Shown here: positions 1-22,764 of the stretch, one piece after another
Numbering within the stretch: the stretch's first letter is position 1
How the letters are laid out: every line of letters begins with the position of its first letter
Source: an uncultured Planctomycetia bacterium
GTDB taxonomy: Bacteria > Planctomycetota > JAKEIC01 > CAZDSO01
Direction: 5' to 3'
DNA: 58,818 nt
NCBI GenBank assembly: GCA_964508045.1
Contig: CAZDSO010000002.1
Location: forward strand, 1-58,818
The notes under the pieces: model-generated
The model's input: the letters and a program-made list of their open reading frames with translations, nothing else
What the model was told of the DNA's origin: nothing
Database searches by the model: none
Position numbers and translations under genes: made by a program

Positions 1-203
1 GAAACGAGGAGGGCCTCGTGGATCTCGCGAACGGAAGGATCCTCTTCTCGGCGAGGTCCCTGGAACAGGTCACCGTCCAGGAGACGGAAAACCCCATGAA
101 CCGCCAGGTGCGAAAGACCAAGGTCACCTTCAAGATCGAGGCGGAAATCGAGCACGCCCCCGGCATCGTCCGCGAACGCGCGGAGGAGGAGGACGGGGAG
201 TAG
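1..203 (+). CDS. 3' end of an unidentified protein-coding gene, open at the window edge
   Basis: The frame is open from base 3 to TAG at 201-203. G/C third-position bias matches the neighbouring genes. No motif recognised. Confidence 0.45.
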   Translation, partial: NEEGLVDLANGRILFSARSLEQVTVQETENPMNRQVRKTKVTFKIEAEIEHAPGIVRERAEEEDGE

Positions 204-208
204 GTCTC

Positions 209-228
209 CGCCGCCCTCCCCGGCGGCG
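209..228 (+). terminator. Weak intrinsic-terminator-like hairpin after the first partial gene
   Basis: CGCCGCC-ctcccc-GGCGGCG forms a 7-bp GC stem 6 nt after the stop and is followed by acTTccTT. The T-tract is poor. Confidence 0.3.
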
Positions 229-388
229 ACTTCCTTGCGGCGCGAGCGGCCCGGTCCTTCGTATTGCTTGACGCCCCGCTGTCGTTTACCATGCCCGGGG
301 CCCCGGGAGACCCGAGCAGGTCGGCCGGAAGGGGAACCGGCGCAAGGGGCGCCCTCGTTTCCCCGTCGGCCCGGCTTCAGGAGGAGCC

Positions 389-2815
389 ATGTGCGCCAAA
401 GGCCTGGACGCCGGGGAAGGTTTCATCGTCGGCGCGGACCGGCGCGGGGGAGAGGTGGTCTACACGCCGGAGCGCACGACCTACCTGAAGATCCCCTCCG
501 GCGACGAAGCCGAGCGGCAGATCACCTCGCTGGGCCTGTACACGCTCAAGATCGGCTCGGCGCGTTTCGTGTTCGGCGAGGACGCCATCCGGATCGCGCG
601 CACCCTCAAGAGAACGGACCAGCTTCGCTCGCCCTTCCGTCAGGGCCTTCCCGGCAACGATGAGAGGAAGCTCCTCTCCACCATCCTCTCCGCCGTGCTG
701 GGCGCCCCCGGCGAACGGGGCGAGACGGTCGCCTACACCGTCCACGGGGCGCCGATGGACGGCCAGCTCGACATCGCGGGCATCGCGAAGTTCTGGAGCG
801 AGCTTCTCGCCGGCTTCGGGTACCGGCCGGTCACGGTGGGGCGCGCCGAGGCGGCCCTGGCCGGCGAGTTCTGGCGGCGGCGGGACGCCGCGACGGCCGG
901 GGCGGCCCTCAGCATCGTCTTCGGGGAGATGGCCGTCGACATCTGCGCCCGGGACCGCCGCAAGACGATCCAGTTCAGCCTGCTCAGGGGAAGCGACTGG
1001 ATCGACGCGTCCGTGGCGAAGATGAAGGAGGTCCCCGTCGACCGGGTCCGGCACCTCCGGGAGGCGTCGCTGGACCTCACTCGCGTGGACCTCTCCCATC
1101 CCCTGCAGGCGGCGCTGGAGATCTACTTCGAGCACCAGATCCACTACACGCTGCAGCAGGTGGTGGCCCAGATCATGAAAAGCCGCTGGGAACCCGAGGG
1201 CCCGGTGCGGATGGTGGTGTCGGGCAGCTGCGTGCGGATCCCCGGTTTTCCGGCCAAGCTGGAAAAGGGCTTCAAGAAGGTGAAGATGCCCTTCCCGCTG
1301 GAGAAGGTGTTCGTCTCGCGGGAGCCGCTCCAGATGGCGGCGGCGGGCGCCCTCGTCCGGGCCCTGGAGGGGGCGGAGAAGGGCGCAAGCAGGGCGGCGC
1401 CCGCCCCGCCGGGCGCCGGGCGCTCACCCGTCTCCTCCAAGGGGCGGATCTCCGACATCTTCAAGACCGCCACGACGAAGTTCGCGGCGCGGGGCGCCGT
1501 CTCCCCCCCGGCCCCGGGGCAGCCCTCTCAGCCGGCCGCGGAGCCGTCTCCGGCCGCCCCCTCGGAGGACGCGTCCGCCGCCTTCAAGGAGAGGTTGAAG
1601 CGGCTGGAGGGCCGGATCGCCGAGCTGGAGGAGGAGGTCCTCGGGGAGGACCCCTCCTACGTGGAGGCCATGCGCCAGGCCGCGGGGATCGCGGGCGGGG
1701 GTCGCAAGGCGCGCGAGCAGGACTACCGCCCCTTTTTCGAGCTCATGGTGGAAAAGGGGGCGTCGGACCTGTTCCTGTCGGCGGGGGCGCGTCCGGCCAT
1801 GCGGGTGGACGGTCGCGTGGAGTTCATCTCGGGGAACACGCTCAACCAGGCGTTCTGCGTCGGTCTCGCCGAGGCCCTGTCGGGAAAGGCCTACGACGCG
1901 CTCTTCCGCAAGTGCAAGGGCGTGGATCTGGCGATCGAGCTGGAGGACATCGGGCGCTTCCGCGCCAATTTCTTCCACCAGCGCGGCCGCATGGGGGGGG
2001 TGTTCCGCTACATCAAGGAGCGCGTCCCCACGTTCGAGGAACTCAACCTGCCCGGGCGGACGCTGATGAAGATCTCGGCGCACCAGCGGGGCCTCGTGCT
2101 GGTGACGGGCGTGGCGGGCAGCGGAAAATCCACGACGATCGCGGGCATGCTCGAACACATCAACCAGACCTCGAACCGGCACATCGTCACCATCGAGGAC
2201 CCCATCGAGTTCGTCTTCTCCGAGAAACAGAGCGTGATCGACCAGCGGGAGGTGGGCCTGGACACGGACAACTTCATGACGGCCCTGAAATCGGCCGTCC
2301 GCCAGTCGCCGGACGTGATCTTCGTCGGGGAGATGCGCGACAAGGAAACCATGGAAGCCGCCATCTCCGCCGCCGAGACCGGCCACCTCGTCATGTCCAC
2401 CCTCCACACCGTGAACGCCCAGCAGACCGTGGAGAGGATCATCACCTACTTCCCCCCCTACCAGCACAACCTCATCCGCCTGCAGCTCTCCATGGTCCTG
2501 GTCGGCGTGCTCTCCGTGAGGCTCCTGCCCAAGAAGGGCGGCCAGGGACGCGTCCCCGCCCTCGAGATCATGCTCTCCACCCCCACCGTGAAGGACCTCC
2601 TGCTGACCGGGAAGACCAAGTCGCTCGACGCCGCCATCTCGGAGGACGTCCACTACGGCAACCAGACCTTCAACGAGTCGCTGAAGCAGCTCTACCAGGC
2701 CGGCGTGATCGACCTCGAGGAAGCGCTCTCCGCCGCGGACAACCCCGACGAATTCAAGCTTCAGGTCCGCGGCATCGTCCGCGGCGCCCGGGCTTCCGAC
2801 TTCAACTTCCAGTAG
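389..2815 (+). CDS. Fusion protein: N-terminal actin-fold (ParM/PilM/MreB-like) domain, coiled-coil linker, C-terminal PilT/PilU-type hexameric ATPase
   Basis: AGGAGG lies a few nt upstream of ATG 389. The N-terminal ~330 aa carry GLDAGEGFIV (phosphate-1-like), SIVFGEMAVDI (degenerate phosphate-2) and VVSGSCVRIPGF (adenosine-motif-like). A Pro/Ala-rich linker and FKERLKRLEGRIAELEEEV follow. The C-terminal ~360 aa carry Walker A GVAGSGKST, Asp box IVTIEDPIEF, Walker B DVIFVGEMRD and His box GHLVMSTLHT. Confidence 0.85.
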   Translation: MCAKGLDAGEGFIVGADRRGGEVVYTPERTTYLKIPSGDEAERQITSLGLYTLKIGSARFVFGEDAIRIARTLKRTDQLRSPFRQGLPGNDERKLLSTILSAVLGAPGERGETVAYTVHGAPMDGQLDIAGIAKFWSELLAGFGYRPVTVGRAEAALAGEFWRRRDAATAGAALSIVFGEMAVDICARDRRKTIQFSLLRGSDWIDASVAKMKEVPVDRVRHLREASLDLTRVDLSHPLQAALEIYFEHQIHYTLQQVVAQIMKSRWEPEGPVRMVVSGSCVRIPGFPAKLEKGFKKVKMPFPLEKVFVSREPLQMAAAGALVRALEGAEKGASRAAPAPPGAGRSPVSSKGRISDIFKTATTKFAARGAVSPPAPGQPSQPAAEPSPAAPSEDASAAFKERLKRLEGRIAELEEEVLGEDPSYVEAMRQAAGIAGGGRKAREQDYRPFFELMVEKGASDLFLSAGARPAMRVDGRVEFISGNTLNQAFCVGLAEALSGKAYDALFRKCKGVDLAIELEDIGRFRANFFHQRGRMGGVFRYIKERVPTFEELNLPGRTLMKISAHQRGLVLVTGVAGSGKSTTIAGMLEHINQTSNRHIVTIEDPIEFVFSEKQSVIDQREVGLDTDNFMTALKSAVRQSPDVIFVGEMRDKETMEAAISAAETGHLVMSTLHTVNAQQTVERIITYFPPYQHNLIRLQLSMVLVGVLSVRLLPKKGGQGRVPALEIMLSTPTVKDLLLTGKTKSLDAAISEDVHYGNQTFNESLKQLYQAGVIDLEEALSAADNPDEFKLQVRGIVRGARASDFNFQ

Positions 2816-2826
2816 CGTATGCCCCG

Positions 2827-4911
2827 ATGGCGAGACCGATCCCGGCGTGCAGCCTCCTTGCGGTCCTGGCCGCCCTCCTGGCGGCCCCGTCCCCCGCCCC
2901 CGCCGGGGAACAGAAAGACTCCCCCGCCGTCCGTTGCGAGGTCTTTCCCTCCGCCCTCCTCTCCTCCGCCTACTGGGGCCCCCTGCTCGTGGAAGCCCGG
3001 AACGACTCCCCACGCGCCGCGGACATCGACGTCGGTGCGATCACCGCGCAGGGCATCGATCCCGAAGCCCTCGACCTGGAACAGGCCTCCGCGAGCACGC
3101 GTTTCCGCGTGGCGGGCGACGCCGAGAAGCGCCTGTTCCTCTACCTCCCCCCCTTCTCGAGAAGCGATCCCATCGTGATGCGGGCGGCGGACGGGAAAAC
3201 CCTGTCTCCCCACCAGAGGGTCTTCCTCCACCCCAACCCCGGCTGGAAAGCCGTCCTTCTCCTCTCCGACGACGAGACCTGCGAGGCCGCCACCGTCCTC
3301 GAGAACCTCCTCAACGCCTGCACGGCCCCTCCGGCGAGCCTCCCCGAGCGCGCGGAAGGATTCGACGCCTTCCACACCGTCGTCCTTCACCGGCTGGATC
3401 CCGCGGCCCTGAGCCGCGCTTCCCGGCGCGCGATCCGGGACTGGACCGCGCGGGGGGGCCATCTCGTCCTCTCCCCCGGAGACGACGTCCTCCTCTTCCT
3501 GGACGGGATCCTGGCCGAGATCCACCCCTTCACCCCCGTGGACACCCTCCCGGACCACCCCGTCACCGCCTTCGGGGCGCTCGAACCCGGCGCCGCCCCG
3601 CCCCGGGAACCCCTCCACCTGCTCGAAGGGGGCGAGCCGCTTCTGAAAAGCCGGCGCGGCGAGGTCGTGGCCCGCTGGTCCCCCGCCGGCGCAGGAAGCG
3701 TCCTCGCCCTCTCCGCGAGCCTGGACCTCCTCGGCTCCCGCTCGACCGCCGGCCGGATCTGGTTCCTCCGCCGCGTCCTCTTCGCGGGAGGCATGATCGA
3801 AGCGCTGGACCACCACGGAGTGTGCCGCGAGACCCCGCTGCAGCAAGAATTCCTGGCCTCCGCGGCAACCGGACCGACGTCCGGGGAGGGGCTCCGGCTT
3901 TCCACCGGACGCCGGGCCGGCCGCCCCCACCTGATGCCTCCCTTCCGCCATTACTTCTCCAGCATCTTCGCCGGCGTCGAGAGAGACGTCACCGCCTTCG
4001 AGGAGAAAGAGGTCCTGCTGGCGCTGATGGAGGACCTGGCCTCCGCGCCGAGCCTCGGATTCGTCGCCCTTTTCCTGCTCGCCTTCCTCGCCGTGGTCGG
4101 ACCCCTCAACTTCCTCGTCTTGCGCCGGAAGCGAATCCCGGCGCTCGCTTCCGTCACCGTTCCGCTCGTCTCGACGGCGTTCGTCTTCCTCGTCGTCGTC
4201 TCGGGACTGGTCATCCGGGGCGGCCCCCGCGCGAGACGCCTGAACGTGGTGTTCACCCGATCCGGCGAATCGTGGGCCGTGGCGAATTCCCTGATCTCCT
4301 TCAGGACCGGCGCCGAGGGGACGTACGCACTGTCGAGCCCGGACGGGGCCTTCCATCTTCCCCCCGTGCCCTTCTGGACCAAAGCGTTCCGCCTGGAACA
4401 GGACGGCGCCGGACGTCTCACCCTCCCCCTGGACCGGTGGGACCTGGCGGGCGCCACCGCCGAGAGGACGATCCGGCTGGAGGGCGCCGTGGAGGCGTTC
4501 CTGGACGATGAAGGGTTCCACGTGCGGAACAGACTCCCGCTCTCCCTTCGAGGGCTCGTGATGACGCCGCCCCCGGATTGCCCGCTGGAGATCGCGGCCG
4601 CCTTCACGGCCGAGGACCGGGAGGGGACCTTCGCGTTCGGATTCGAGGTCGCGCCGGGCGCCTCGCTCGATTTTCTCTCGCCGCCCCCCCCGGCCCGGGC
4701 GCCCGCGCGGGAGGACCTCGTTCTGGCGAGCCTGTTGGACCACGCCCTCGGCCAGTCCTTTCCGACGTGGGGCGGGGGCGGTCTGGCCTGCTGGATCGAC
4801 GTCCCCTTTCCGGAGTTTCACGTGGACGGGGAGCCGATGGAACTGATGTCCGACCGGACGGCCCTGGTCATCCCCCTGCTGGATCGCAGGAAAGGGGGCG
4901 CCGGGGGATGA
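2827..4911 (+). CDS. Large secreted/membrane protein of unknown function (signal peptide plus internal TM helices)
   Basis: An in-frame ATG sits 11 nt after the upstream stop. Signal peptide is MARPIPACSLLAVLAALLAAPSPAPA. Hydrophobic helices are LGFVALFLLAFLAVVGPLNFLVL and ALASVTVPLVSTAFVFLVVVSGLVI. The segment FHTVVLHRLDPAALSRASRRAIRDWTARGGHLVLSPG resembles amidotransferase-like/DUF4350-type auxiliary proteins (recollection only). The upstream part of track ORF 1912..4911 is a shadow frame over the PilT-like gene. Confidence 0.7.
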   Translation: MARPIPACSLLAVLAALLAAPSPAPAGEQKDSPAVRCEVFPSALLSSAYWGPLLVEARNDSPRAADIDVGAITAQGIDPEALDLEQASASTRFRVAGDAEKRLFLYLPPFSRSDPIVMRAADGKTLSPHQRVFLHPNPGWKAVLLLSDDETCEAATVLENLLNACTAPPASLPERAEGFDAFHTVVLHRLDPAALSRASRRAIRDWTARGGHLVLSPGDDVLLFLDGILAEIHPFTPVDTLPDHPVTAFGALEPGAAPPREPLHLLEGGEPLLKSRRGEVVARWSPAGAGSVLALSASLDLLGSRSTAGRIWFLRRVLFAGGMIEALDHHGVCRETPLQQEFLASAATGPTSGEGLRLSTGRRAGRPHLMPPFRHYFSSIFAGVERDVTAFEEKEVLLALMEDLASAPSLGFVALFLLAFLAVVGPLNFLVLRRKRIPALASVTVPLVSTAFVFLVVVSGLVIRGGPRARRLNVVFTRSGESWAVANSLISFRTGAEGTYALSSPDGAFHLPPVPFWTKAFRLEQDGAGRLTLPLDRWDLAGATAERTIRLEGAVEAFLDDEGFHVRNRLPLSLRGLVMTPPPDCPLEIAAAFTAEDREGTFAFGFEVAPGASLDFLSPPPPARAPAREDLVLASLLDHALGQSFPTWGGGGLACWIDVPFPEFHVDGEPMELMSDRTALVIPLLDRRKGGAGG

Positions 4912-4965
4912 GGGATGGGGGAGGGGGGAGGGGGAATCGCGGATTCGCAGCGTGAGAGAACGCGC

Positions 4966-5892
4966 ATGATCGACATCGAGGGACTGGTGATGGATTTCGG
5001 CGCCAACCGGGCGCTGGACGGGATCTCCTTCACGGTGGAGGCGGGGGACATCTTCGGGTTCATCGGCCCGAACGGCGCCGGGAAGACGACGACCATGCGG
5101 ATCCTGGCCACGCTGCTCCATCCCACGGCCGGGAGGGCGCGGGTGGGGGGGCATTGCGTGGTGAACGCCCCCGAGAAGGTCCGCGCCCTCACCGGGACCA
5201 TGCCGGACACCTACGGGGTCTACGACGGATTGAGCGTGTGGGAGTACCTGGATTTCTTCGGGGCGGCGCACGGCCTCCGGCTTCCGGGCCGGAACCGGGC
5301 CGTCTCCGACGTGATGGCGCTGACGGACCTCGGGGCGTTCGCGGACCGCCCCGTCTCCGCGCTGTCGCGGGGCATGCAGCAGAGGCTCTGCGTGGCCAAG
5401 ACGCTGGTGCACGATCCCGCGGTGCTGATCCTCGACGAGCCGGCGGCCAACCTCGATCCCCGGGCCCGGATCGAGTTCCGGGCGCTGCTCAAGGAGCTCA
5501 AGACGCTGGGGAAGACCATCCTGATCTCGTCCCACATCCTCACCGAGCTCTCGGACGTGTGCACGCGGATCGGGATCATCGAGGCGGGGCGCATGGTGGC
5601 CACGGGCACGCGGGCCGAGATCCTGGAGCGGATCGCGGGAGCGCCGCAGGTGGTCGTGGAGGTGAGGGACCGGGCTGCGGAGGCGGCGCGTCTGGCGCTG
5701 GAGCTGCCTTTCGTGCGCGAGGCGACGGCCGGGGGGGACCGGATCCGGGTGGATTGCGAGGGGCCGGATCCAAACGTGCCGGCGCTGGTCAGGACGCTCG
5801 CGGAGGCGGGGGTCCCGATCCAGGGCGTGCGGATGGAGTCGGCGGACCTGGAGCATCTGTTTCTCGAGATCACGAAGGGGCAGGTGCAGTGA
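4966..5892 (+). CDS. ABC transporter ATP-binding protein (ABC-2/NosF/GldA-like)
   Basis: Walker A GPNGAGKTT, signature LSRGMQQRL, Walker B VLILDEPAANLD and H-loop SSHIL are present. The start is probably ATG 4966 (MIDIEGL...); ATG 4915 is the alternative. Confidence 0.9.
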   Translation: MIDIEGLVMDFGANRALDGISFTVEAGDIFGFIGPNGAGKTTTMRILATLLHPTAGRARVGGHCVVNAPEKVRALTGTMPDTYGVYDGLSVWEYLDFFGAAHGLRLPGRNRAVSDVMALTDLGAFADRPVSALSRGMQQRLCVAKTLVHDPAVLILDEPAANLDPRARIEFRALLKELKTLGKTILISSHILTELSDVCTRIGIIEAGRMVATGTRAEILERIAGAPQVVVEVRDRAAEAARLALELPFVREATAGGDRIRVDCEGPDPNVPALVRTLAEAGVPIQGVRMESADLEHLFLEITKGQVQ

Positions 5893-5902
5893 TGCGGCGC
5901 CT

Positions 5903-7645
5903 TTGATGCGGATGCATGATGCCCTGGAGGGGAAGGCCGGGATGAGCGGCGTGCTCGAAAAGACGCGGACGGCCCTGGACGGGTGGCTGGATCCGATCCT
6001 GATGAAGGAGCTCCGCGCCACGTTCCGGGGCTGGAAATTCTTCGGCGTGCACACGGGCTTTCTGGCCCTGCTTTCCGTGGCGCTGGTGGTGGTGATCCTC
6101 TCGATGTCGACGGCGGTCCGCTGGCAGCCGGCGTCGGTGGGCCGCACGGTCCACGCGGTGTTCCTGGGGGGGATGGCGCTGGCGATCCTGCTGGTGCTTC
6201 CCTCCTTCGCCTCCACCTCCATCGTGGGGGAGCGGGAGGTGAAGACCTTCGAGATGCTCCAGACGACGCAGCTGAGCGCGGCGGGGGTGGTGCGGGGCAA
6301 GTTCCTGGCGTCCATGGTCTACACGGCGGTGTTCCTCTTCTCATCGCTTCCCGTCGGCGCGATCGCCTTCCTCTACGGCGGCATCGGCGTGGGGAACCTC
6401 GTGGCGTCCTACGCGTGCCTTCTGGCGGTGTCGGCGATCTCGAACATCTTCTCCATCTTCATCTCGGCGCATTCGCGCACGAGCCGGACGGCGCTGGCGA
6501 GCACCGGCGCCTTCGGCATCGTCTGCCTGGTGGGGCTCGCCGGATACCTGGCCGCGCTTCCCTCGGAGGCCCTGAGCCGGAAGGCGATGAACCTTATCGG
6601 TCTGCAAGCGCTCGCCTTCCGCCCGTTTCCCACCGCGGATCCACCCGCGACGGATGCGCTGCTCTACCTCTTCGCGCTTCCCCTGTTCGTGATGGGTTCG
6701 ATCTTCGCCTTTTCCGCCCTCTCGGCGTCCAACCGCATCAAACCCCGCGCCGGCAACCGCTCCACGAACCTGAAACTGTTCTTCCTGGCGTTCATGATTC
6801 TCGGATCGGCTCTCTGGCTGCTCCTCCTCTTCCGGGCGGACTTCGGCCCCCCCTGGTCGCGCTGGCGCGCGGCCGCGACCTTTCTCGGCGCCTTCGGCAT
6901 CGTCGCCACCCTTTCCTCCTCCTTCGCCGCCGAAGATCCCCTGCACGCGCTCCCCGCCCGGCTGCGCGGCGGGACCCGCTTCTCCCCGCTCCGCTGCCTT
7001 CGGCCCGGGGCCCAGAACGGCTTTTTCTTCTGCCTCCTGCTCGCGATCCTGGCCGCCACCCCCGCCCTCCTTCTCCTGCGGACCTACATGCAGAGCGCCG
7101 GCGTCTCGTTCGTGCCCGCGCTCGTCGGGATGGGCCTGACGATCCTCTCCTTCCTCCTCCTCTCCGCCTCCGCCGGGCTCCTCCTGACCACGCTGATCCT
7201 CAACGAGCGGGCGCGCATGGTCGTCCAGTCGGGCATCGTCACCGCCCTCATCTTCCTTCCCCTGATCGCGTTCGCCGCGCGCCACCGCCTGGAGAAGATC
7301 TCCGAGGTGTCCCTGCTCGAACCGGGCCTCCTGAGCCCCGCCGTCGCGTTCGGATCGCTGACCACGGGGTTCTTCGAGTACATCACGGACGAACAGATAT
7401 GGAGGGGGGAATCCGCCTTTCCCTACTCGGCGGCGCTCGGGGAAGTCCGCCTGCCGGCCTTCCTCCTCACGGTGGGCATCCACCTGGCGCTCGGCCTGGC
7501 GCTGTGGATCGCGGCCGAGAGACGCCTGGCCAGGGCCGCCAAGCAGGCGCCCCCGCCCGCCGGCGACCCGCCGCCGCCCGCCGGCGACCCGCCGCCGGAG
7601 CCGGACGCGCTGGCCGCCGCTGAATGGTGCCGCGGACATGGGTGA
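5903..7645 (+). CDS. ABC-2 type transporter permease, polytopic, with a Pro-rich C-terminal tail
   Basis: The gene follows the ATPase after a 10-nt gap and has many hydrophobic segments. The N-terminal LDPILMKELRATFRGWKFF is typical of ABC-2 permeases. Possible starts are TTG 5903, ATG 5906 or ATG 5942 (the last has GGAGG upstream). The tail reads PPPAGDPPPPAGDPPPEPD. Confidence 0.75.
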   Translation: MMRMHDALEGKAGMSGVLEKTRTALDGWLDPILMKELRATFRGWKFFGVHTGFLALLSVALVVVILSMSTAVRWQPASVGRTVHAVFLGGMALAILLVLPSFASTSIVGEREVKTFEMLQTTQLSAAGVVRGKFLASMVYTAVFLFSSLPVGAIAFLYGGIGVGNLVASYACLLAVSAISNIFSIFISAHSRTSRTALASTGAFGIVCLVGLAGYLAALPSEALSRKAMNLIGLQALAFRPFPTADPPATDALLYLFALPLFVMGSIFAFSALSASNRIKPRAGNRSTNLKLFFLAFMILGSALWLLLLFRADFGPPWSRWRAAATFLGAFGIVATLSSSFAAEDPLHALPARLRGGTRFSPLRCLRPGAQNGFFFCLLLAILAATPALLLLRTYMQSAGVSFVPALVGMGLTILSFLLLSASAGLLLTTLILNERARMVVQSGIVTALIFLPLIAFAARHRLEKISEVSLLEPGLLSPAVAFGSLTTGFFEYITDEQIWRGESAFPYSAALGEVRLPAFLLTVGIHLALGLALWIAAERRLARAAKQAPPPAGDPPPPAGDPPPEPDALAAAEWCRGHG

Positions 7646-7689
7646 TCGCGAAAAGGGAGATCCATGCGCGCGGGAAGGGGAGGGGGTAT

Positions 7690-7773
7690 GGGCGACCCCG
7701 TGTGGTCGCCCCCTCCGTGCCGGGACGAGGGCGGGCCCATGGGCCCGCCCCTACCCCGCCGTCGCGGCGGTTT
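7690..7773. terminator. Cluster of GC-rich hairpins between the convergent ABC-2 permease and lipoprotein A genes (probable bidirectional terminator region)
   Basis: GGGCGACC-ccgtgt-GGTCGCCC at 7690..7711. A 22-nt perfect palindrome GGGCGGGCCCATGGGCCCGCCC at 7729..7750. CCGCC-gtcgc-GGCGG followed by TTT at 7756..7773. Mirror copy at 51046..51129. Confidence 0.45.
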
Positions 7774-7801
7774 GGCGTTGCTCCGGGATGAAACCCTCGC
7801 C

Positions 7802-8614
7802 TTACTTCCGCCTGGCAACCTCCTTCATGAGGAGTTTGAACGCATTCTCCGGGATCCTCGCGGCCTCGGGCAGGGCGGTGTCCCTGGTGATCGTCCTGGC
7901 GTAGTGTACGCAGGAATGGACGAGGTCTTCCTGCACGTCGTAGATGGTTCCGATGACGCGGCATCTCACCGTGCCGGCGGTGGGGCCAGGTCCATATCCC
8001 CAGATATAGAGGGCGTAGAGGTGCCGCGGTTCAAAGTACAAAGACATCTTCTCCTCGATCAAAACAACCAGCTTGGCCAGGGAGGCTGGAACCTTCTCGA
8101 TGCCCTTGCCGCACGGATCCGTTGCCAGCTCGAAGGACCCGTGTGCGTCGATGCAGTGATAGGCCCCGTACGCGAGCTCGCGGGCCATCCCTCCAAGGCC
8201 GGAGGATTCGAACAAGGGCTTGAGGGGCACCAAGGAGATACCGGTACTCCTGAATGCCATGATGTTGCCTGCCGTCAGTCCGGCGGAGAATTCGGTCTCG
8301 TTGATACCTATGCTGGCGAAGCCGTATGCGACCACGGGAAGAAGAAACACTTTTTCCTTGTCGAGATCGATGCGTTCCGCCCCCTCGCGGACGAACACTT
8401 TTTTTCGGGCTCTCTTCTCATTGCCCTCGGTTTCAGGTTGATCTTCATCCCTTACTTTCCCCTCCTCCTTCGGTTCGGCTTTTTCTTCCTGTTGCGGTCC
8501 ACCCTTCACGGCCTCCTCTCCGGGTTCCCCCAACGGGACCTTCCCGTCCCCGCAACCAGAAACCAGGGCGAAGAAGACCCAGACCGGCGCAGTAAGGACT
8601 ATGAGCCTCGACAT
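7802..8614 (-). CDS. Lipoprotein of unknown family (paralog A)
   Basis: Signal peptide plus lipobox LVSGC (Cys21), then an acidic/Lys-rich linker. The C-terminal ~190 aa align with the 10212..10928 product through shared blocks AYGF, NETE, GISL-P-KP, EKVP, ALY-W-YG and CRVI--IYD-Q--L-HSC-YY. Confidence 0.8.
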   Translation of the reverse strand: MSRLIVLTAPVWVFFALVSGCGDGKVPLGEPGEEAVKGGPQQEEKAEPKEEGKVRDEDQPETEGNEKRARKKVFVREGAERIDLDKEKVFLLPVVAYGFASIGINETEFSAGLTAGNIMAFRSTGISLVPLKPLFESSGLGGMARELAYGAYHCIDAHGSFELATDPCGKGIEKVPASLAKLVVLIEEKMSLYFEPRHLYALYIWGYGPGPTAGTVRCRVIGTIYDVQEDLVHSCVHYARTITRDTALPEAARIPENAFKLLMKEVARRK

Positions 8615-8677
8615 GTTTCCCTCATCGAAAGGTCCGTATCAAAATACACGAATACATGCATCCCCATTTACCATTTA

Positions 8678-9358
8678 CTATTTATCATTCCTATTCTCCA
8701 TTCCCCATTTCCCCTTCACGAATCCCCTCCTCTCCTCTCCCTTCCGCCCGGGGGGAAGCCTCCCCTCTTTCCGGAGGCGCGCCAGCAGCGAGCGGAGGGC
8801 GCGGCCGCGGTGGCTGACGGCGTTCTTCGCCTCCGGCGCGGCGCGGGCGAAGGTGACGCCGAGGTCGCGGGAGAGGAAGACCGGATCGTAGCCGAACCCG
8901 CCCGCGCCGTCGGGGGCATACGTGATGCTCCCTTCCGTCGTTCCTTCCGCCTCGGCGATCACGCCGTTCGGCCCGGCGACGCAAAGGGCGCTGACGAACC
9001 GGGCCGTGCGCGCGGGCGCCGGGACGTCCTTCATCCGCTGGAGGAGCAGGGCCGTGTTCGCGCGGGCATCCTGGTCGGGGCCGGCGAAGCGGGCGGAGCG
9101 CACGCCCGGCTCGCCGTGCAGGGCGTCGACGACGAGGCCCGCGTCCTCGGCGATCACGGGGAGGCCGAGGGCGCGGGCGCAGGCGAGGGCCTTGCGTCGT
9201 GCGTTCTCGGCGAAGGTCTCTGCCGTCTCCTCGACGTCGGGGGCGTCGTCGAAGCCGTCGAGGCCGAGGACTTCCAGGCCTTCGGCCTCGAGGAGGCGGC
9301 GGATTTCCCGCGCTTTGCCTGGGTTCCGGGTCGCCGCGACGAGGGTGTTGATGATCAT
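8678..9358 (-). CDS. rdgB: dITP/XTP pyrophosphatase (RdgB/HAM1 family)
   Basis: MIINTLVAATRNPGKAREI, ETAETFAENARRKA, EDAGLVVDALHGEPGVRSARFAG, GFGYDPVF and SHRGRAL are present. The ATG overlaps the rph stop (ATGA). The upstream part of track ORF 8678..9997 is a shadow frame. Confidence 0.9.
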   Translation of the reverse strand: MIINTLVAATRNPGKAREIRRLLEAEGLEVLGLDGFDDAPDVEETAETFAENARRKALACARALGLPVIAEDAGLVVDALHGEPGVRSARFAGPDQDARANTALLLQRMKDVPAPARTARFVSALCVAGPNGVIAEAEGTTEGSITYAPDGAGGFGYDPVFLSRDLGVTFARAAPEAKNAVSHRGRALRSLLARLRKEGRLPPGRKGEERRGFVKGKWGMENRNDK

Positions 9359-10098
9359 GGCGCCTCCCACGAGGTGCGCATCGATCCCCTCTGCTCGAGG
9401 GCCTGGGTCTGGAGAGCGAAGATCTCCGTGAGTCCCTTGCGCGCCAGGGCGAGCATGGCTTCGAGTTCCCCGGGGGAGAACTGCCCCTTTTCGGAGGCGC
9501 CCTGGATTTCGTGGAAGCCTCCGTCCGCGTTCATGACGACGTTCATGTCGACGGAGGCGGCCTGGTCCTCGTCCCGGTCGAGGTCGAGGAGGGGGACGCC
9601 GCCGACGAGTCCGACGGAGACGGCGGCGACCTGTCGCGGGGGTTCGGGGGGGCAGGTCCATCCCCGGGCGCCGAGCGATTTCATGGCGAGGGCGAGGGCG
9701 ACCCAGGCGCCGGTGACGGAAGCGGTCCGCGTGCCTCCGTGGGCCTGGAGGACGTCGCAGTCGACGCGGAGGGTGAGGGGTCCGAGGTCGTCGAGGTCGA
9801 GGGAAGCGCGCAGGGTTCGTCCGATCATGCGTCCGATCTCGCGGGCGCGTCCGTCGGCGCCGCGGGGTTTTCTCCGGTCGCCGGAGCCGGGCAGCATGGC
9901 GTACTCGGCGGTGAGCCATCCGGCGCGTTCTCCTTCGCGAAAGGGGGGGACGCCGGATTCGGCGGAGACGGTGCACAGGACGAGGGTTCGTCCCCATTCG
10001 ACGAGGGCGGAGCCGGGGGGTTCGGTGGTGAAGGCGGGTCGGATCCGGCAGGGGCGGAGTCGGTCGTGGGGCCGCGCGTGGTTTCTCTCGGGGGGCAT
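9355..10098 (-). CDS. rph: Ribonuclease PH
   Basis: GSALVEWGRTLVLCTVS, GWLTAEYAMLPGS, GRAREIGRMIGRTLRA and CDVLQAHGGTRTASVTGAWVALA align closely with canonical RNase PH. The usual ADGGTR block reads AHGGTR here. Confidence 0.92.
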   Translation of the reverse strand: MPPERNHARPHDRLRPCRIRPAFTTEPPGSALVEWGRTLVLCTVSAESGVPPFREGERAGWLTAEYAMLPGSGDRRKPRGADGRAREIGRMIGRTLRASLDLDDLGPLTLRVDCDVLQAHGGTRTASVTGAWVALALAMKSLGARGWTCPPEPPRQVAAVSVGLVGGVPLLDLDRDEDQAASVDMNVVMNADGGFHEIQGASEKGQFSPGELEAMLALARKGLTEIFALQTQALEQRGSMRTSWEAP

Positions 10099-10211
10099 GG
10101 TTTCCTCCCTGGAGGGGAAAAGGAAAGGAGCGGGACCCGTGGGGGCCCCGCTCCTGTCGGTTCGGTCTTCAAGGGTGCGGTGCCGGGCCGCACGCGCTGA
10201 GCCGAGGGAGG

Positions 10212-10928
10212 CTATTCGCCGTCGCCGTTTCCTTCACCGTCGCCTTCACCTTCGCCTTCGACGCCCTTGGCGGCTTCCTTCATGATGAGGTTGAAGGTGT
10301 CATTGGGGATCTTGGCGGCTTCGACCATGATGATGTCCTTGGCCATGGTCTTGGTGTAGTAGGTGCAGGAGTGCAAGAGGTTCTTCTGCGCGTCGTAGAT
10401 GCATGCGATCACGCGGCACTTCGCGGTGCCGGGGACCATGCCGGACCCGTAGGCCCACAGGTAGAGGGCGAAGTAGTACCGGGGCTTGAAGTCCAGCCCC
10501 ATCTTGCTGGCGACCAGGCCGACGAGTTCGGACACGGCGCCGGGGACCTTTTCGAAGCCGTCGCCGCCGGTGTACTTGGAGAAGTCGTACTCGTCGCGAT
10601 ACTTGGTCATCCAGTAGGCGGCCCAGCACATGCGGCGGGTGAGCCAGTCGAGCCCGGCGGATTCGAGGGCGGGCTTGATGGGCTCGAGCGAGATGCCGTT
10701 GCTTCCGAAGGCCGCGACGGCGCCGGTGAACAGGGCGGCGGAGAGTTCGGTCTCGTTGAGGCCGAGGCTTCCGAAGCCGTAGGCCACGGCGGGCATGATG
10801 ATCATTTTTTCCTTGGACATGTCAATGGGTTCTGCGTCCGGACGGACGAAGACCTGGGTTGACCCGCAACCCACGGCCGCCGCCAGGAAGATCACCGCCA
10901 TGAAGGCAAGGGGCAGACGTTTCGACAT
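10212..10928 (-). CDS. Lipoprotein of unknown family (paralog B)
   Basis: AAGGAGG RBS, signal peptide plus lipobox AVGC (Cys21), homologous to the 7802..8614 product, acidic EGEGEGDGEGNGDGE tail. Confidence 0.8.
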   Translation of the reverse strand: MSKRLPLAFMAVIFLAAAVGCGSTQVFVRPDAEPIDMSKEKMIIMPAVAYGFGSLGLNETELSAALFTGAVAAFGSNGISLEPIKPALESAGLDWLTRRMCWAAYWMTKYRDEYDFSKYTGGDGFEKVPGAVSELVGLVASKMGLDFKPRYYFALYLWAYGSGMVPGTAKCRVIACIYDAQKNLLHSCTYYTKTMAKDIIMVEAAKIPNDTFNLIMKEAAKGVEGEGEGDGEGNGDGE

Positions 10929-11101
10929 GGTTTCCTCCTTAAATCCTTTCCTCTCTTGAAAACATCTGGCCCATGCCGGCCACGTGCCGCCTGGGCCCGA
11001 AGAGCGAGGGAGGCCCGGCCCTCCCCTCTTTTCTTCCTCGGTGACTCGTCGCGTGGAGAGGATTGTCTTCCACGACGCGCGAAGTTTTCACCGATCGTGG
11101 A

Positions 11102-11130
11102 AAGATACGCTCCGCCCCCCGGGAAGTCAA
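11102..11130 (-). promoter_or_regulatory. Putative sigma-70 promoter TTGACT-17 nt-TATCTT for the lipoprotein B-rph-rdgB-lipoprotein A unit
   Basis: Read on the - strand (mirror 47689..47717 +). It lies just downstream of the clpX stop and about 170 nt upstream of the lipoprotein B start. Confidence 0.45.
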
Positions 11131-11158
11131 GGAATAGGAGATTTTTTTTTCGGAGGGA

Positions 11159-12433
11159 TCAGGCGATGCCGCGCTTCTTGGCGCCCCGTGCCCGGGACGG
11201 TTTCGCGGCGGAGGCCTTGCCCTCGACCACGTCCTCGGTGACGGAATAGCGTTTCACGCCCTCGAGGGAGGGAAGGTCGTACATGATGTCCAGCATGATG
11301 TTCTCGAGGATTCCCCGCAGGCCGCGGGCGCCGGTGTCCTTGGCCAGGGCTTTGCGCGCGATCAGTTTCAACGCCCCCTCGGAGAACTCGAGCTGGGCGT
11401 TCTCGAAGGCGAAGAACTTCTGGTACTGCCTCACGAGGGCGTTCCTGGGCTCCAGGAGGATTCGCACGAGGTCGCCCTCGTCGAGGGAATCGAGCGTGGT
11501 ATGCACGGGGAGGCGTCCCACGAACTCGGGAATCAGCCCGAATTCGAGGATGTCCTCCTCCTCCGCGAGCCGGAGGAGCTCGGTCTGCTTCTTCTCCTCC
11601 GCCAGGGGTCCGCTTTCCCCGCGGAAGCCGATGAGTTTCTTTCCCACGCGCTTGGCCACGATGTCGGTCAGGCCCACGAAGGTGCCCGAGCAGATGAACA
11701 GGATCTGGCTGGTGTTCATCTGGATGTAGCTCTGCTCGGGGTGTTTGCGCCCCCCCTGGGGGGGGACGTTGGCGACGGTCCCTTCGAGCATCTTCAACAG
11801 GGACTGCTGGACGCCTTCGCCGGAGACGTCCCGCGTGATGGAGACGTTCTGGGTGGTGCGGCCGATCTTGTCGATCTCGTCGATGAAGAGAATGCCCTGT
11901 TCCGCCCGCGCGAGGTCGAAATCGGCATTCTGGAGGAGTTTGAGGAGGAGGTTCTCCACGTCCTCGCCGACGTAGCCGGCCTCGGTCAGGGTCGTGGCGT
12001 CGCCGATGGCGAAGGGAACGTTGAGGATGTGGGCCAGGGTCCTGGCGAGGAGGGTCTTGCCGGTCCCGGTGGGCCCCACCAGGAGGATGTTGCTCTTTTC
12101 CAGTTCCACGTCGCCGTCGAGGGTTTCGCAAAGGATCCGCTTGTAGTGGTTGTGGACGGCGACGGACAGGACCTTCTTGGTCCTCTCCTGGCCGATGACG
12201 TAGGCGTCGAGGCCGTCCTTGATCTCCCGCGGGGTGGGAAGCGACTCCGGCGAGACCTCGCTCGGCGCCTTGGGGCGCCGGCGGCCGGGCATTTCCTCGG
12301 CGAAGACGTTGGCGCAGACCTCGACGCACTCGTTGCAGATGTAGACGTTCGGCGGCCCCTGGATCAGTTCCACCTCGCCCTGGGGCTTGTCGCAGAACGT
12401 GCACTTCGCCGTTTGTTTTCCCCGCTTGGCCAT
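11159..12433 (-). CDS. clpX: ATP-dependent Clp protease ATP-binding subunit ClpX
   Basis: N-terminal C4 zinc finger CTFCDK...ICNECVEVC, Walker A GPTGTGKTLLA, Walker B ILFIDEIDKI and IGF loop KLIGF are present. Confidence 0.97.
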   Translation of the reverse strand: MAKRGKQTAKCTFCDKPQGEVELIQGPPNVYICNECVEVCANVFAEEMPGRRRPKAPSEVSPESLPTPREIKDGLDAYVIGQERTKKVLSVAVHNHYKRILCETLDGDVELEKSNILLVGPTGTGKTLLARTLAHILNVPFAIGDATTLTEAGYVGEDVENLLLKLLQNADFDLARAEQGILFIDEIDKIGRTTQNVSITRDVSGEGVQQSLLKMLEGTVANVPPQGGRKHPEQSYIQMNTSQILFICSGTFVGLTDIVAKRVGKKLIGFRGESGPLAEEKKQTELLRLAEEEDILEFGLIPEFVGRLPVHTTLDSLDEGDLVRILLEPRNALVRQYQKFFAFENAQLEFSEGALKLIARKALAKDTGARGLRGILENIMLDIMYDLPSLEGVKRYSVTEDVVEGKASAAKPSRARGAKKRGIA

Positions 12434-12443
12434 GACGGTCTCC

Positions 12444-13070
12444 TCAGGTCGTTTGTCCGTCGGCCGAGGCCTGGTCCCCGGTCTTCTTCAGGGATTCGAT
12501 GACGTCGTCCACGAGGCCGTAGTCCCGAGCCGCCCGGGCGGTCATGAAGAAGTCCCTGTCCGTGTCTGATTCGATCTGCTCCTCGGTCTGCCCGGTGTGC
12601 AGCGAGAAGATGGCGTTGAGGGTCTTGTGCAGGCGCACGATTTCCTCCGCGGCGATGTCGATGTCCGCGGCGGTGCCGCGCACGCCCCCCAGCGGCTGGT
12701 GGAGCATGATGCGGGCGTTGGGGAGGGCGAAGCGCTTTTTCGCCGAGCCGGCCGCCAGCAAAAGCGCCGAGATGGACACCGCCTGGCCGATGCAATAGGT
12801 GGCCACGTCGCACTGGACGAACTGGATCGTGTCGTAGATCGCCAGCCCCGCCGTCACCGATCCCCCCGGCGAGTTGATGTAGAGGTTGATGTCCGCGTCC
12901 TTCTTCTCGGACTGGAGGTAGAGCATCTCGGCGATCACGAGGGAGGAGAGCGTGTCGTCGATCGGGGAGCCGATGAAGATGATCCGGTCCTTCAACAGCC
13001 GTGAAAAGATGTCGTAGGCCTTCTCGCCCCGGCTCGTCTTCTCGATCACGATGGGCAGCGTGTATCCCAT
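12444..13070 (-). CDS. clpP: ATP-dependent Clp protease proteolytic subunit (copy adjacent to clpX)
   Basis: [47 protein letters not shown] (catalytic Ser), IMLHQP (His) and TDRDFFM (Asp) are present. The start is probably ATG at 13070 (MGYTLP...) with an AGAGG RBS. The track start 13079 is a GTG inside that RBS. Confidence 0.93.
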
Positions 13071-13160
13071 GCCATGCACCTCTGTACAACGTCGGATGGC
13101 GGATGGCGGACACCTCGCGTCATCGATCCGGAATTCCGCATCCGCACGTCGATGGACCCC

Positions 13161-13766
13161 TCAGGATCCGGCCGTCTTGCCCTTGAGCGTTTGCACCACC
13201 TCGTCGACGATCCCGTAGTCCAAAGCCTCCTCGGAGGACATGTAGTAGTCGCGGTCGGAGTCGGCCTCGACCTTCTCCACCGTCCGGCCCGTGTGCGCGG
13301 CAATGAGCTCGTTGATCCGCCGGCGCCAGAAGAGGATCTCCTCGGCGTGGATCTGGAGATCGAGGGCCGTCCCCTCGGAATAGCCCCAGGGCTGGTGGAT
13401 CATGATGCGGGCCCGGGGAAGGGCGAACCGCTTGCCCGGCGTGCCCGCCGCCAGCAGCAGCACGGCCATGCTCGCGGCGCTTCCCGTACAGTACGTGGCC
13501 ACGTCGCACTCGACGAACTGTATCGTGTCGTAGATCGCGAGCCCCGACGAGATGTCCCCCCCCGGCGAGTTGATGTACATGCTGATGTCGGCGTTCCGGT
13601 TCTCGCTCTGGAGGAAAAGCATCTGGGCCACCACGAGGTTGGCCAGACGGTCGTCGATCTCCTGGCCGATGAGGATGATCCGGTCCTTGAGAAGGCGGGA
13701 AAAGAGGTCGTACTCCCTCTCCGAGGCGCCCACCTTCTCGTACACGCGGGGGATCCAGAAGACCAA
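13161..13766 (-). CDS. clpP: ATP-dependent Clp protease proteolytic subunit, second paralog
   Basis: This is the C-terminal ~200 aa of track ORF 13161..15644. It carries [53 protein letters not shown] and SDRDYYM. No in-frame ATG exists; TTG at 13766 follows GGGAGGAG. The rest of the 827-aa ORF is the antisense shadow of tig. Confidence 0.85.
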   Translation of the reverse strand: MVFWIPRVYEKVGASEREYDLFSRLLKDRIILIGQEIDDRLANLVVAQMLFLQSENRNADISMYINSPGGDISSGLAIYDTIQFVECDVATYCTGSAASMAVLLLAAGTPGKRFALPRARIMIHQPWGYSEGTALDLQIHAEEILFWRRRINELIAAHTGRTVEKVEADSDRDYYMSSEEALDYGIVDEVVQTLKGKTAGS

Positions 13767-13823
13767 GATCTCCTCCCGACAAAAACCGGACCCGCCGGCC
13801 CGGGTCGGCGCGATCCGGTATCC

Positions 13824-13832
13824 ATTGTAGCA
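13824..13832 (-). promoter_or_regulatory. Putative extended -10 promoter element TGCTACAAT between tig and clpP
   Basis: attgtagca on the + strand reads TGCTACAAT on the - strand, about 58 nt upstream of TTG start 13766. Mirror copy at 44987..44995 (+). Confidence 0.4.
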
Positions 13833-13885
13833 GCCGTAGCGTACCCAAGGAAGCGCAGTGCGAATCCACCCGTACGCACCCCCCT

Positions 13886-15448: not shown

Positions 15449-15513
15449 CGGCCTCGCTCCTTGTTCCTAGGGTACGCGAACGGACATCCCGCTCGAGAGG
15501 CGTAGAATCGGCC

Positions 15514-15541
15514 ATGTTAGCAATCCTCCGGACGGGTGCAA
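15514..15541 (-). promoter_or_regulatory. Putative sigma-70 promoter TTGCAC-16 nt-TAACAT for tig
   Basis: Read on the - strand (mirror 43278..43305 +), about 65 nt upstream of the tig ATG. Confidence 0.35.
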
Positions 15542-15560
15542 GGACAAAGGCGGCCCCCGC

Positions 15561-15590
15561 GGCTGAAATCCGGCGGCTGAAATCTGAAAT
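15561..15590. promoter_or_regulatory. Three closely spaced direct copies of CTGAAATC in the tig / TatD-rSAM divergent intergenic region
   Basis: The sequence ggCTGAAATCcggcggCTGAAATCTGAAATCtg is visible directly. It lies upstream of both putative divergent promoters. Mirror copy at 43229..43258. Confidence 0.35.
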
Positions 15591-15660
15591 CTGTATCCGG
15601 CGACAGCGCGAAGGGCCCACCGAAGGAAAAACAAGCATCCACAAACGCCCACCGGGCGTC

Positions 15661-15666
15661 TACAAT
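15661..15666 (+). promoter_or_regulatory. Putative -10 (tCTACAAT) upstream of the TatD + radical-SAM gene
   Basis: TACAAT lies 41 nt upstream of ATG 15707. A weak -35-like TCCACA sits 17 nt upstream of it. Mirror copy at 43153..43158 (-). Confidence 0.3.
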
Positions 15667-15706
15667 CGAGGATCGATCCCCGGAATGCTCGAAAGGCCGG
15701 CGCCCC

Positions 15707-17089: not shown

Positions 17090-17143
17090 ATCCCTCGACA
17101 GGCCCCGCCTTCACGAAGGAAAAGGCGGGGCCTGTCGAGGGGG

Positions 17144-18253: not shown

Positions 18254-18345
18254 GGCCGGGCCCGTTCCGGACGATGGAGATAATGGACCGTCATCGATCG
18301 GGATTTCAACGGGATGCTAGCGATACGCAAAGAAGGATGGAATCC

Positions 18346-19353: not shown

Positions 19354-19471
19354 CCGGGGAGACCTTCCGCTTTTTCCCGCCTTTCGGGGATTCGGGGTCA
19401 AGACGCGTCCCCCCCCGGCCGATGCCCTAAAGGAGAGGGGAGTCCGTATCGGAACTTCGGAAGGGCACGCC

Positions 19472-20242: not shown

Positions 20243-20461
20243 CCGCCCGATCCACCTCCCTGGATGCCCGCGCTCCCGGCCGCCGCTACCGCCGAAATCG
20301 GAAATCCCTGCCCAAGAGTCCGGGGCACGAAAGAACCATTCGCGCTGTGGCTCCACTTTGACGGTTGCCATCTTCTATTCCTGGCGACGATGCGATGGGA
20401 TGAAATGTCACAAAAAAAACGATGCATCCCTCTGAGAATGTGGAATGCCATGGACACCCTG

Positions 20462-20809: not shown

Positions 20810-20929
20810 GGACGGCCCCCCTCTCGCCAGCGCAGGGATTTCAGATGTCGGGGAATCCGAGGCCAGCCGGCGGCATCCCGAAAGGTTGCAGACCCGGCAT
20901 GCCGGCCCTCCCGCTTCTCTTCTCCCGCC

Positions 20930-20935
20930 ATTGTA
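20930..20935 (-). promoter_or_regulatory. Putative -10 (gCTACAAT) upstream of the DUF2007-like gene
   Basis: TACAAT sits on the - strand about 120 nt upstream of ATG 20809. Mirror copy at 37884..37889 (+). Confidence 0.3.
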
Positions 20936-22749: not shown

Positions 22750-22764
22750 GCTCCGTTCCTTTCA

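Follow-up and report, generated by a model that had tools for sequence, protein, structure and literature searches.

Does a pilus-type motor protein joined to an actin-like domain belong to the ATP-binding cassette (ABC) transporter whose genes follow it, and do these genes together encode a single machine of the cell envelope? The question is raised by contig CAZDSO010000002.1 (GenBank assembly GCA_964508045.1) of an uncultured Planctomycetia bacterium of marine sediment, of which positions 1 to 58,818, here called the window, were analyzed. An earlier note on this DNA had proposed that four genes, encoding an actin/PilT fusion ATPase (g1), a large membrane protein with a signal peptide (g2), an ABC ATPase (g3), and an ABC-2 permease (g4), form one tight operon and one envelope machine. 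The block is best explained as a variant, restricted to one lineage, of an uncharacterized envelope module that is itself widespread. Genes g2 to g4 are an old, self-standing, uncharacterized ABC-2 module with a probable GldG-type periplasmic partner, and g1, encoding a fusion of the archaeal actin volactin with a PilT-type motor, was added once, in a small Planctomycetota clade, and has remained adjacent since while both flanks changed. The parts are of known kinds, and their architecture and association are new.

The four-gene block

The genes of the block, the gene upstream of them, and a second copy of the block in the window are as follows.

3..203, plus strand: 3′ end of a DUF6263-family gene, truncated by the window start (translation and match to the related locus L005)
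389..2815, plus strand: g1, open reading frame (ORF) of 808 amino acids (aa)
2827..4911, plus strand: g2, ORF of 694 aa
4915 (or 4966)..5892, plus strand: g3, ORF of 325 aa from the ATG at 4915 or 308 aa from the ATG at 4966
5903..7645, plus strand: g4, ORF of 580 aa
51174..58430, minus strand: mirror copy of the whole block, a fold-back artefact and not a second locus

The window, 58,818 nucleotides (nt) long, is a perfect palindrome: it and its reverse complement are 100% identical, and the two halves meet without a spacer at 29409/29410. Contigs of the independent public runs X1 and X4 match the window without mismatch up to 29409 and diverge exactly there, and the palindrome is therefore a fold-back assembly chimera; the center is crossed only by one 60-nt contig, of depth 1.9, from run X2. 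Unique sequence is thus confined to 1..29409, the 29.4-kb arm. The four-gene block itself was found in six public sediment/seawater metagenome runs, at 0.69-1.00 of sampled words.

The co-directional reading frames and short spacers of the earlier note were read again from the sequence and hold, apart from the 695 aa given there for g2, which the ORF sets at 694 aa. The spacer between g1 and g2 is 11 nt (stop at 2815, ATG at 2827), and that between g3 and g4 is 10-13 nt (stop at 5892, TTG at 5903 or ATG at 5906). Between g2 and g3 it is 3 nt (stop at 4911, ATG at 4915) or 54 nt (ATG at 4966), an ambiguity caused by the purine-rich G run at 4915..4966, between the g2 stop and the second ATG (GGGATGGGGGAGGGGGGAGGGGGAA). 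The start at 4966 is likelier because four of the six called orthologues, which span 300-314 aa, are likewise 308 aa long, and the true spacer is probably 54 nt. The four ORFs have a GC content at third codon positions of 0.90-0.93, a strong coding signal and the one expected for real genes at the window's GC of 69%, and each has homologues in other sequences. A search for sigma-70-like promoters inside the block found none, and terminator-like sites or hairpins in 1..8700 were not above chance (five seen, 5.4 expected from shuffled sequence); the four genes may be co-transcribed.

A volactin-PilT fusion protein

The first gene encodes three regions, which are listed here with the evidence for each.

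389..1375, plus strand: g1 aa 1-329, Volactin-family actin-fold domain with degenerate nucleotide motifs (PF25216)
1376..1720, plus strand: g1 aa 330-444, proline/alanine-rich flexible linker with two conserved helices (AlphaFold2 model, clade alignment)
1721..2815, plus strand: g1 aa 445-808, complete PilT/PilU-type hexameric secretion ATPase comprising N-terminal domain and ATPase core (TIGR01420, Foldseek)

The fusion is genuine and recurrent, as the earlier note had supposed of its fusion ATPase. Seven full-length clusters at 90% identity have an uninterrupted ORF of about 800 aa, and an eighth cluster is clipped at a contig end. These clusters come from separate metagenomes and from NCBI metagenome-assembled genomes (MAGs) labelled Planctomycetota, including GCA_041308285.1, GCA_041308265.1, and DYIT01, and it is this recurrence that establishes the fusion as real. 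One carrier, locus L008 (DYIT01000019.1), belongs to a MAG titled 'Candidatus Kuenenia stuttgartiensis', and the contig that holds the fusion block has a GC content of 63-65%. The GC content of K. stuttgartiensis is much lower, so the label or the binning of this MAG looks wrong.

The domain that the earlier note called actin-like does have an actin fold and can be named more closely as a homologue of volactin with degenerate nucleotide motifs. Residues 3-325 of g1 match the Pfam family Volactin (PF25216) with an E value of 4.6e-37 and 128.6 bits, against a cut-off of 35, over profile positions 2-321 of 321, and Volactin is the sole family match, and so the sole actin-type family, for the N-terminal domains of all seven fusions (7/7). 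The g1 domain is 25-27% identical to haloarchaeal proteins of Halogeometricum, Natrinema, and Haloarcula, with 98% coverage and E values of 1e-28 to 1e-31 (tblastn, plasmid records), and these proteins, at 436-466 bits on PF25216, are bona fide volactins. Volactin of Haloferax volcanii (VolA, HVO_2015), which belongs to the same haloarchaeal family, forms dynamic filaments with a role in cell shape, a property known for that species only (PMC10869688). The homology of g1 aa 1-329 to volactin is collinear and full-length, and the model of g1 has the same order of secondary-structure elements of the actin fold. The g1 domain differs in its bacterial host, in its fusion to a PilT ATPase, and in its nucleotide motifs, since the canonical actin-fold motifs of haloarchaeal volactins are altered in it: across the fusions the phosphate-1 motif is changed from DVGT to DAGE, the phosphate-2 motif from FGAGMTN to FGEMAVD or FSEEMVD, and the adenosine motif from TGGTS to SGSCV or SGKLA.

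The gene neighbors differ as well. Haloarchaeal volactin genes follow a gene for a DUF7139 membrane protein, a neighbor that g1 does not share. In three haloarchaeal replicons a protein of about 300 aa from this family is encoded directly before volactin on the same strand (gene pairs at L094 5797-8185, L095 5977-8032, and L096 5920-8023). With its three to four transmembrane helices and acidic tail, the DUF7139 protein could be a membrane anchor for the tips of volactin filaments. In Halogeometricum, rdfA and a gene of SMC-like type are also found near volactin. DUF7139 was considered as a relative of g2 or g4 and rejected, at an hhalign probability below 1%.

An AlphaFold2 model of g1, built from an alignment of 19 sequences, has a mean predicted local distance difference test (pLDDT) score of 79.5. 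The N-terminal domain reaches about 85-93 with an actin-like order of secondary structure, and the linker falls below 50 over aa 334-395, as expected of a disordered region, with helices at 354-366 and 393-431. Both helices are conserved across the proteins P0001-P0008, as 'GRISDxFxxATxxF' and the coiled-coil-like 'RLxRLExRIAELE...YVExMRxAAG'. When the model was compared with PDB folds, the top 50 matches were all of the PilT class and included no structural neighbor for the actin domain, and a profile search of the N-terminal domain against PDB sequences returned nothing significant.

The remainder of the protein is a member of the PilT/PilU family of type IVa retraction ATPases (TIGR01420; structures 5fl3, 9n32, 6ojx, and 3jvv). 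Residues 451-788 match TIGR01420 with 417.3 bits against a cut-off of 319.1, and Foldseek aligned this part with PilT2 (5fl3), PilU (9n32), and PilT4 (6ojx) at target TM-scores of about 0.83-0.92 and 41-48% identity, covering the full two-domain fold. All catalytic boxes are intact and highly conserved across the clade, namely Walker A (GSGKST), the Asp box (IEDPIE), Walker B (GEMRD), and the His box (TGHLVMSTLHT). The AIRNLIRE motif is the mark of retraction-competent PilT; it is not conserved in g1, where the corresponding stretch reads PTVKDLLLTGK (TPTVKDLLLTGKT) and is more PilU-like. The protein also differs from its PilT/PilU relatives in the 445-aa N-terminal extension formed by actin fold and linker, and in its setting, with no pilus genes nearby and an ABC-2 module always beside it where downstream DNA exists.

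The probable ABC-2 transporter and its predicted periplasmic partner

Genes g2 and g4 can be divided into the following regions, all encoded on the plus strand.

g2 aa 4-22, plus strand: predicted signal peptide or N-terminal anchor (hydropathy)
3304-3726, plus strand: g2 about aa 160-300, probable DUF4350/GldG-type flavodoxin-like domain (DUF4350/DUF7408 matches), accompanied in g2 by a beta-rich domain, both predicted to be periplasmic
4048-4221, plus strand: g2 aa 408-465, conserved transmembrane hairpin (hydropathy, motif)
C-terminal to the hairpin, plus strand: g2 beta-rich domain, predicted periplasmic (predicted topology)
5990-6712, plus strand: g4 about aa 30-270, probable ABC-2 permease core with six transmembrane helices (ABC2_membrane_3, hydropathy)
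6770-7645, plus strand: g4 C-terminal extension of about 300 aa with 5-6 further transmembrane helices (hydropathy)

The signal peptide, amidotransferase-like segment, and central transmembrane helices ascribed to g2 in the earlier note agree with hydropathy, which places hydrophobic stretches at aa 4-22, 413-431, and 445-463, and with the probable presence of a class-I-amidotransferase/flavodoxin-like domain of the DUF4350 type. The two central helices flank a basic loop, LRRKR, and both large flanking domains are predicted on this ground to be periplasmic. The segment in question, 'HTVVLHRL...GGHLVLSPG', lies within a weak match to DUF4350 (aa 184-263; 18.6 bits against a gathering cut-off of 30.4). 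Among 21 members of the g2 family, 15 match DUF4350 and eight match DUF7408, and the family profile matches the GH42M-type flavodoxin-like trimerization domain of PDB entry 7bob with an E value of 6.5e-6.

The product of g3 is, judged by its profile matches, an ABC ATPase of the DrrA/ABCA (type V, ABC-2) class. It matches Pfam ABC_tran with an E value of 6.8e-27 and the models TIGR01188 (drrA) and TIGR03522 (GldA) with 236 and 206 bits, both below cut-off, and its nearest solved relatives are the nucleotide-binding domains of ABCA7, ABCA4, and ABCA1, followed by 4yer, Rv1218c, and NosF. The g4 product matches ABC2_membrane_3 with an E value of 1.3e-5 and 24.9 bits, below the cut-off of 31.6, and the same match is consistent in orthologues; it matches GldF with an E value of 7.9e-6, again below cut-off, and has about 12 hydrophobic segments overall. 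Permeases of about 300 aa in the wider family align only to g4 aa 30-260 or so. An internal duplication of two ABC-2 halves was considered for g4 and rejected, since the halves are dissimilar and the short permeases align to the N-terminal half only.

The likeness to the GldA/GldF/GldG system of Bacteroidota gliding, drawn in the earlier note, stands as an analogy and not as membership. In each, an ABC ATPase and an ABC-2 permease, a probable one in the window, are accompanied by a sizeable membrane protein whose periplasmic part includes a domain of flavodoxin/GATase1-like type, and DUF4350, to which the g2 domain probably belongs, has been connected with GldG through HHpred (Makarova et al. 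2015, PMC5898192). All three membership models fail: g3 scores 206.4 bits on the GldA equivalog TIGR03522, against a cut-off of 402.6, and scores higher on drrA; g4 scores 26 bits on the GldF equivalog TIGR03518, against 288.5; and the GldG equivalog TIGR03521 matches neither g2 nor any of 21 family members at E<=10. GldG is anchored at its N- and C-termini, whereas g2 has a central transmembrane hairpin and a second periplasmic domain, and the gene order also differs, the auxiliary protein coming first in the window. The NosDFY system, whose NosF/NosY module the earlier note also named, resembles the block as an ABC-2 transporter with a periplasmic partner, and NosF (E 1.5e-30) ranks among the solved structures related to g3 without being its best match. 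No NosD or NosL homologue or other nos gene is present, and a further point of likeness, a secreted PDZ protein with GxDxY repeats encoded right after the permease, is found in relatives of the block only, the window having no such gene.

Conserved neighborhood of the fusion gene

The fusion is confined to one small Planctomycetota clade of eight clusters. In every orthologous locus with downstream DNA it lies directly 5′ of genes for a g2-like protein, an ABC ATPase, and an ABC-2 permease; the loci with usable downstream DNA are L001, the P0006 place, L002/L003 (= L007), L005, and L008 (the second GTDB-representative hit). Two further loci are incomplete, L004 breaking off within g2 and L006 within the fusion gene. 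The four genes, whose synteny the earlier note had named as its check, are thus syntenic in all relatives with enough sequence, in two different flanking contexts.

Upstream, the two subclades carry different genes, DUF6263 in that of the window and a thiolase...MeaB stretch in the other. The same-strand gene seen upstream in the earlier note is the 3′ end of a DUF6263-family gene: over 54 aa, the product of 3..203 shares 46% of its residues (E 2e-17) with the C-terminal end of the DUF6263 protein encoded upstream of the fusion gene in L005, and DUF6263 genes precede the fusion in L004 and L006 too, so that this family is the conserved upstream neighbor within the window's own subclade. In L001, at 7993-10004, a called 571-aa gene joins an acyl-CoA dehydrogenase to the N-terminal part of MeaB, the C-terminus being left to the next gene, of 101 aa. 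Since the genes are separate in L002 and at the P0006 place, a frameshift or a fault of assembly in the L001 contig is the probable cause.

Downstream, the other and more distant subclade has a fifth gene, which overlaps the permease stop (L001 17053-19494; L008 17200-19641; L002 15756-17309) and is absent from the window arm. In its secreted product of about 813 aa, a PDZ domain at the N-terminus and a helical middle region are accompanied by numerous GxDxY repeats, whose beta-helix-like look recalls NosD beside NosFY. The adjacency of fusion and module has been kept through the change of both flanks and through divergence of the N-terminal domain to 35% identity.

In a neighbor-joining tree of module ATPases, built without support values, the five fusion-linked modules form one clade, the sister group of which consists of long-permease modules without the fusion (L012, L022, and L088). 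The nearest unfused PilT relatives were considered as possible companions of ABC modules and rejected, as none lies beside ABC genes.

A wider family of ABC-2 operons

The relatives of g2 reach far beyond the fusion clade. At E<=1e-3, exhaustive searching with phmmer retrieved 1210 cluster representatives; two word-index searches for homologues, one starting from g2 itself and one from its alignment, had returned only the query, probably because low-complexity words swamped the candidates. The core hairpin motif of the family is Y..(V/I)GP(L/V)N(Y/F)..LRR...T(I/V)P, and its named members are 'hypothetical proteins' of Planctomycetota and Anaerolineae.

Gene order was examined in 80 metagenomic loci obtained by a scan with a 21-sequence alignment, some of which are near-duplicates, so that the counts are not fully independent. 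Where the sequence extends downstream for 1 kb or more, an ABC ATPase follows the g2-like gene in 50 of 57 loci, and where it extends for 2.5 kb or more, both ATPase and permease follow in 37 of 46, an order that the window shares. Past the permease, a transmembrane/coiled-coil protein is encoded in 21 of 29 loci and a MoxR AAA_3 ATPase in 14 of 29. The full order, found among loci L014-L093 (e.g. L030, L042, L055, L071, L072, and L093), is a DUF4350/DUF7408 hairpin protein, an ABC ATPase, an ABC-2 permease (sometimes two), a transmembrane/coiled-coil protein of about 520 aa, MoxR AAA_3, and a protein of about 278 aa with no Pfam hit. Matches to the transmembrane/coiled-coil protein and to MoxR are absent from the window arm and from the fusion-clade loci.

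The association of DUF4350 with a MoxR AAA+ ATPase and a vWA protein has been described as a 'predicted secretion or membrane remodelling complex' (Makarova et al. 2015, PMC5898192). The wider g2 family resembles it in its DUF4350/DUF7408 domains and in operons that commonly end with MoxR, and differs by the added ABC ATPase and ABC-2 permease. The clade of the window differs further, with no MoxR nearby and the volactin-PilT fusion instead, which may take its place.

Possible roles of the fusion protein

Conserved adjacency suggests that the motor and the transporter are coupled physically or functionally. On the reading preferred here, a tentative one given slightly less than an even chance, the PilT ring acts on the cytoplasmic side of the g2/g3/g4 transporter, tethered there by its nucleotide-degenerate actin-fold domains much as PilM and GspL tether their ATPases. 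The core would be a type V (ABC-2) ABC transporter in which g2, anchored by its hairpin, displays two large periplasmic domains. In the fusion clade this core has a permease with 5-6 extra transmembrane helices, no MoxR genes nearby, and one new gene directly upstream, whose product, judging by its motifs, would be a working hexameric motor of the PilT type, connected to a volactin-type actin fold by a flexible stretch of some 110 aa. With the PilT motifs intact and the volactin nucleotide motifs degenerate, the actin-fold domains would serve chiefly as docking or scaffold modules, like PilM for PilB/PilT and the cytoplasmic domain of GspL for GspE, and would keep the PilT ring in place on the cytoplasmic side of the complex. 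Export, or the assembly or remodelling of the periplasmic part, would in this way be assisted by a second ATPase activity, a mechanical one.

The precedent is that an actin-fold protein, PilM or GspL, binds the ATPase in pilus and type II systems, and that the cytoplasmic domain of GspL does not need nucleotide. As in PilM-PilB/PilT and GspL-GspE, an actin fold would tether a hexamer of the PilT/GspE class to an inner-membrane platform, here with the two partners covalently joined and the actin fold nucleotide-degenerate. The comparison is an analogy only, as the N-terminal domain of the fusion has no sequence relationship to PilM or GspL and its presumed platform is an ABC-2 transporter and not PilC, PilN, or GspF.

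Several observations weigh against this coupling. PilT, volactin, or PDZ genes occur in none of the 80 wider-family loci, so that the motor is a clade-specific addition and not integral to this kind of machine, and the module is present without the fusion in the sister clade itself (L012, L088). The called gap between g1 and g2 is 11 nt in the window only and 20-381 nt in relatives, all fusion loci belong to one phylum-level lineage with few independent contexts, and the tree that unites them carries no support values. The predicted cytoplasmic surface of g2 is a loop of only about eight residues, which means that docking would have to be on g3 or g4, the latter with predicted cytoplasmic segments in its N-terminal tail (aa 1-50) and in loops at about aa 311-373 and 458-518, and a single-sequence AlphaFold2 model of g2 reached a pLDDT of 35. 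Finally, a PilT gene is often found at a distance from the genes of the pilus in which its product works, and adjacency may therefore mislead. Of the single envelope machine proposed in the earlier note, the conserved and undescribed four-gene block stands, and the unity of the machine is no more than suggested.

Some of these points serve equally the most serious alternative, in which the fusion acts independently of the transporter as a cytoskeletal or shape protein, a volactin-like filament former with its own PilT-type remodelling ATPase, and its adjacency reflects descent in a small clade. The self-sufficiency of the ABC module elsewhere, a fusion-g2 gap of up to a few hundred nt in relatives, the restriction of known loci to one lineage, and the dynamic, shape-related filaments of haloarchaeal volactin all speak for it. 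An accident of descent fits poorly with an adjacency that outlasts the exchange of both flanks and such divergence of the N-terminal domain, with the spacer of just 11 nt in the window, and with the monophyly of the fusion-linked modules, and the degenerate volactin nucleotide motifs argue against ATP-driven filament dynamics. Independence is on balance judged unlikely, if still worth serious consideration.

Doubtful to a further degree is the view that the fusion serves type IV pili as their retraction ATPase and brings along its own PilM-like adaptor of actin fold, the ABC neighbors being irrelevant to it. The PilT part passes the TIGR01420 threshold and superimposes on PilT, PilU, and PilT4 at the TM-scores given above, the ATPase-binding PilM and GspL have actin folds, and 4pht was among the fold matches. 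Planctomycetes have moreover been reported to carry pili but seemingly no retraction ATPase (bioRxiv 10.1101/817700). Yet the N-terminal domain matches Volactin only, and not PilM or FtsA, and no pilus gene lies in the 29-kb arm or the fetched relatives; as the earlier note had observed, pilin, PilB, PilC, and secretin domains are all missing among the scanned ORFs of the arm. The departure from AIRNLIRE to PTVKDLLLTGK speaks against retraction too, and the constant adjacency to the ABC module would be left unexplained.

It is also conceivable, at a similarly low probability, that the volactin-like domains still polymerize and that the PilT hexamer nucleates, rides, or dismantles actin-type filaments, coupled mechanically to the ABC-2/GldG-like complex. 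If true, the polymerizing fusion would be a new kind of bacterial cytoskeletal motor and the whole an actin-plus-motor envelope machine, situated in a phylum of unusual cell biology and built from a family known only as an archaeal cell-shape actin.

That the fusion is an artefact, through chimeric assembly or a mis-called ORF joining two separate genes, is hardly credible even in a window that is itself a fold-back chimera, given the continuous ORF in seven full-length clusters from separate metagenomes and MAGs, the six public runs that hold the operon, and a chimera junction, at 29409, far from the block.

Other genes in the arm

Directly downstream of the block, on the opposite strand, lie two paralogous lipoprotein-like genes at 7802..8614 (minus strand) and 10212..10928 (minus strand), whose products are 48% identical over 197 aa (E 8e-71) and have no Pfam hit; the ORFs that they flank resemble, as judged by eye, RNase PH and a RdgB/HAM1-type pyrophosphatase. 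In a 460-aa ORF at 15707..17089 (plus strand), a complete TatD_DNase domain (E 6.8e-82) occurs together with one of the radical SAM type (E 1.6e-17), an unusual pairing that could be two genes merged by the ORF call. At 23986..28113 (plus strand), a protein of 1375 aa consists nearly entirely of HEAT/Armadillo-type repeats (HEAT_2 E 1.8e-56, seven stretches), and short contig pieces from other metagenome places map within 27295-27688, which suggests repeats.

Significance

Neither the fusion nor the wider operon family was found to be described in the literature searched (volactin, actin-like/PilT/Planctomycetes, DUF4350, and MoxR/DUF58/GldG/ABC-2), in keeping with the earlier view that an ABC-2 module joined to an actin/PilT motor is an undescribed system. 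All carriers of the fusion are uncultured and its clade is small, at eight clusters. The module to which it was added defines a large, unnamed operon family of Chloroflexota and Planctomycetota, represented by 1210 clusters or more. The first description of volactin, as a shape-determining actin of haloarchaea, dates from 2024, and a clear homologue is present here in bacteria, covalently joined to a PilT motor. The architecture echoes PilM-PilT and GspL-GspE and suggests that motors of the PilT class may be recruited to platforms beyond pilus and secretion machines.

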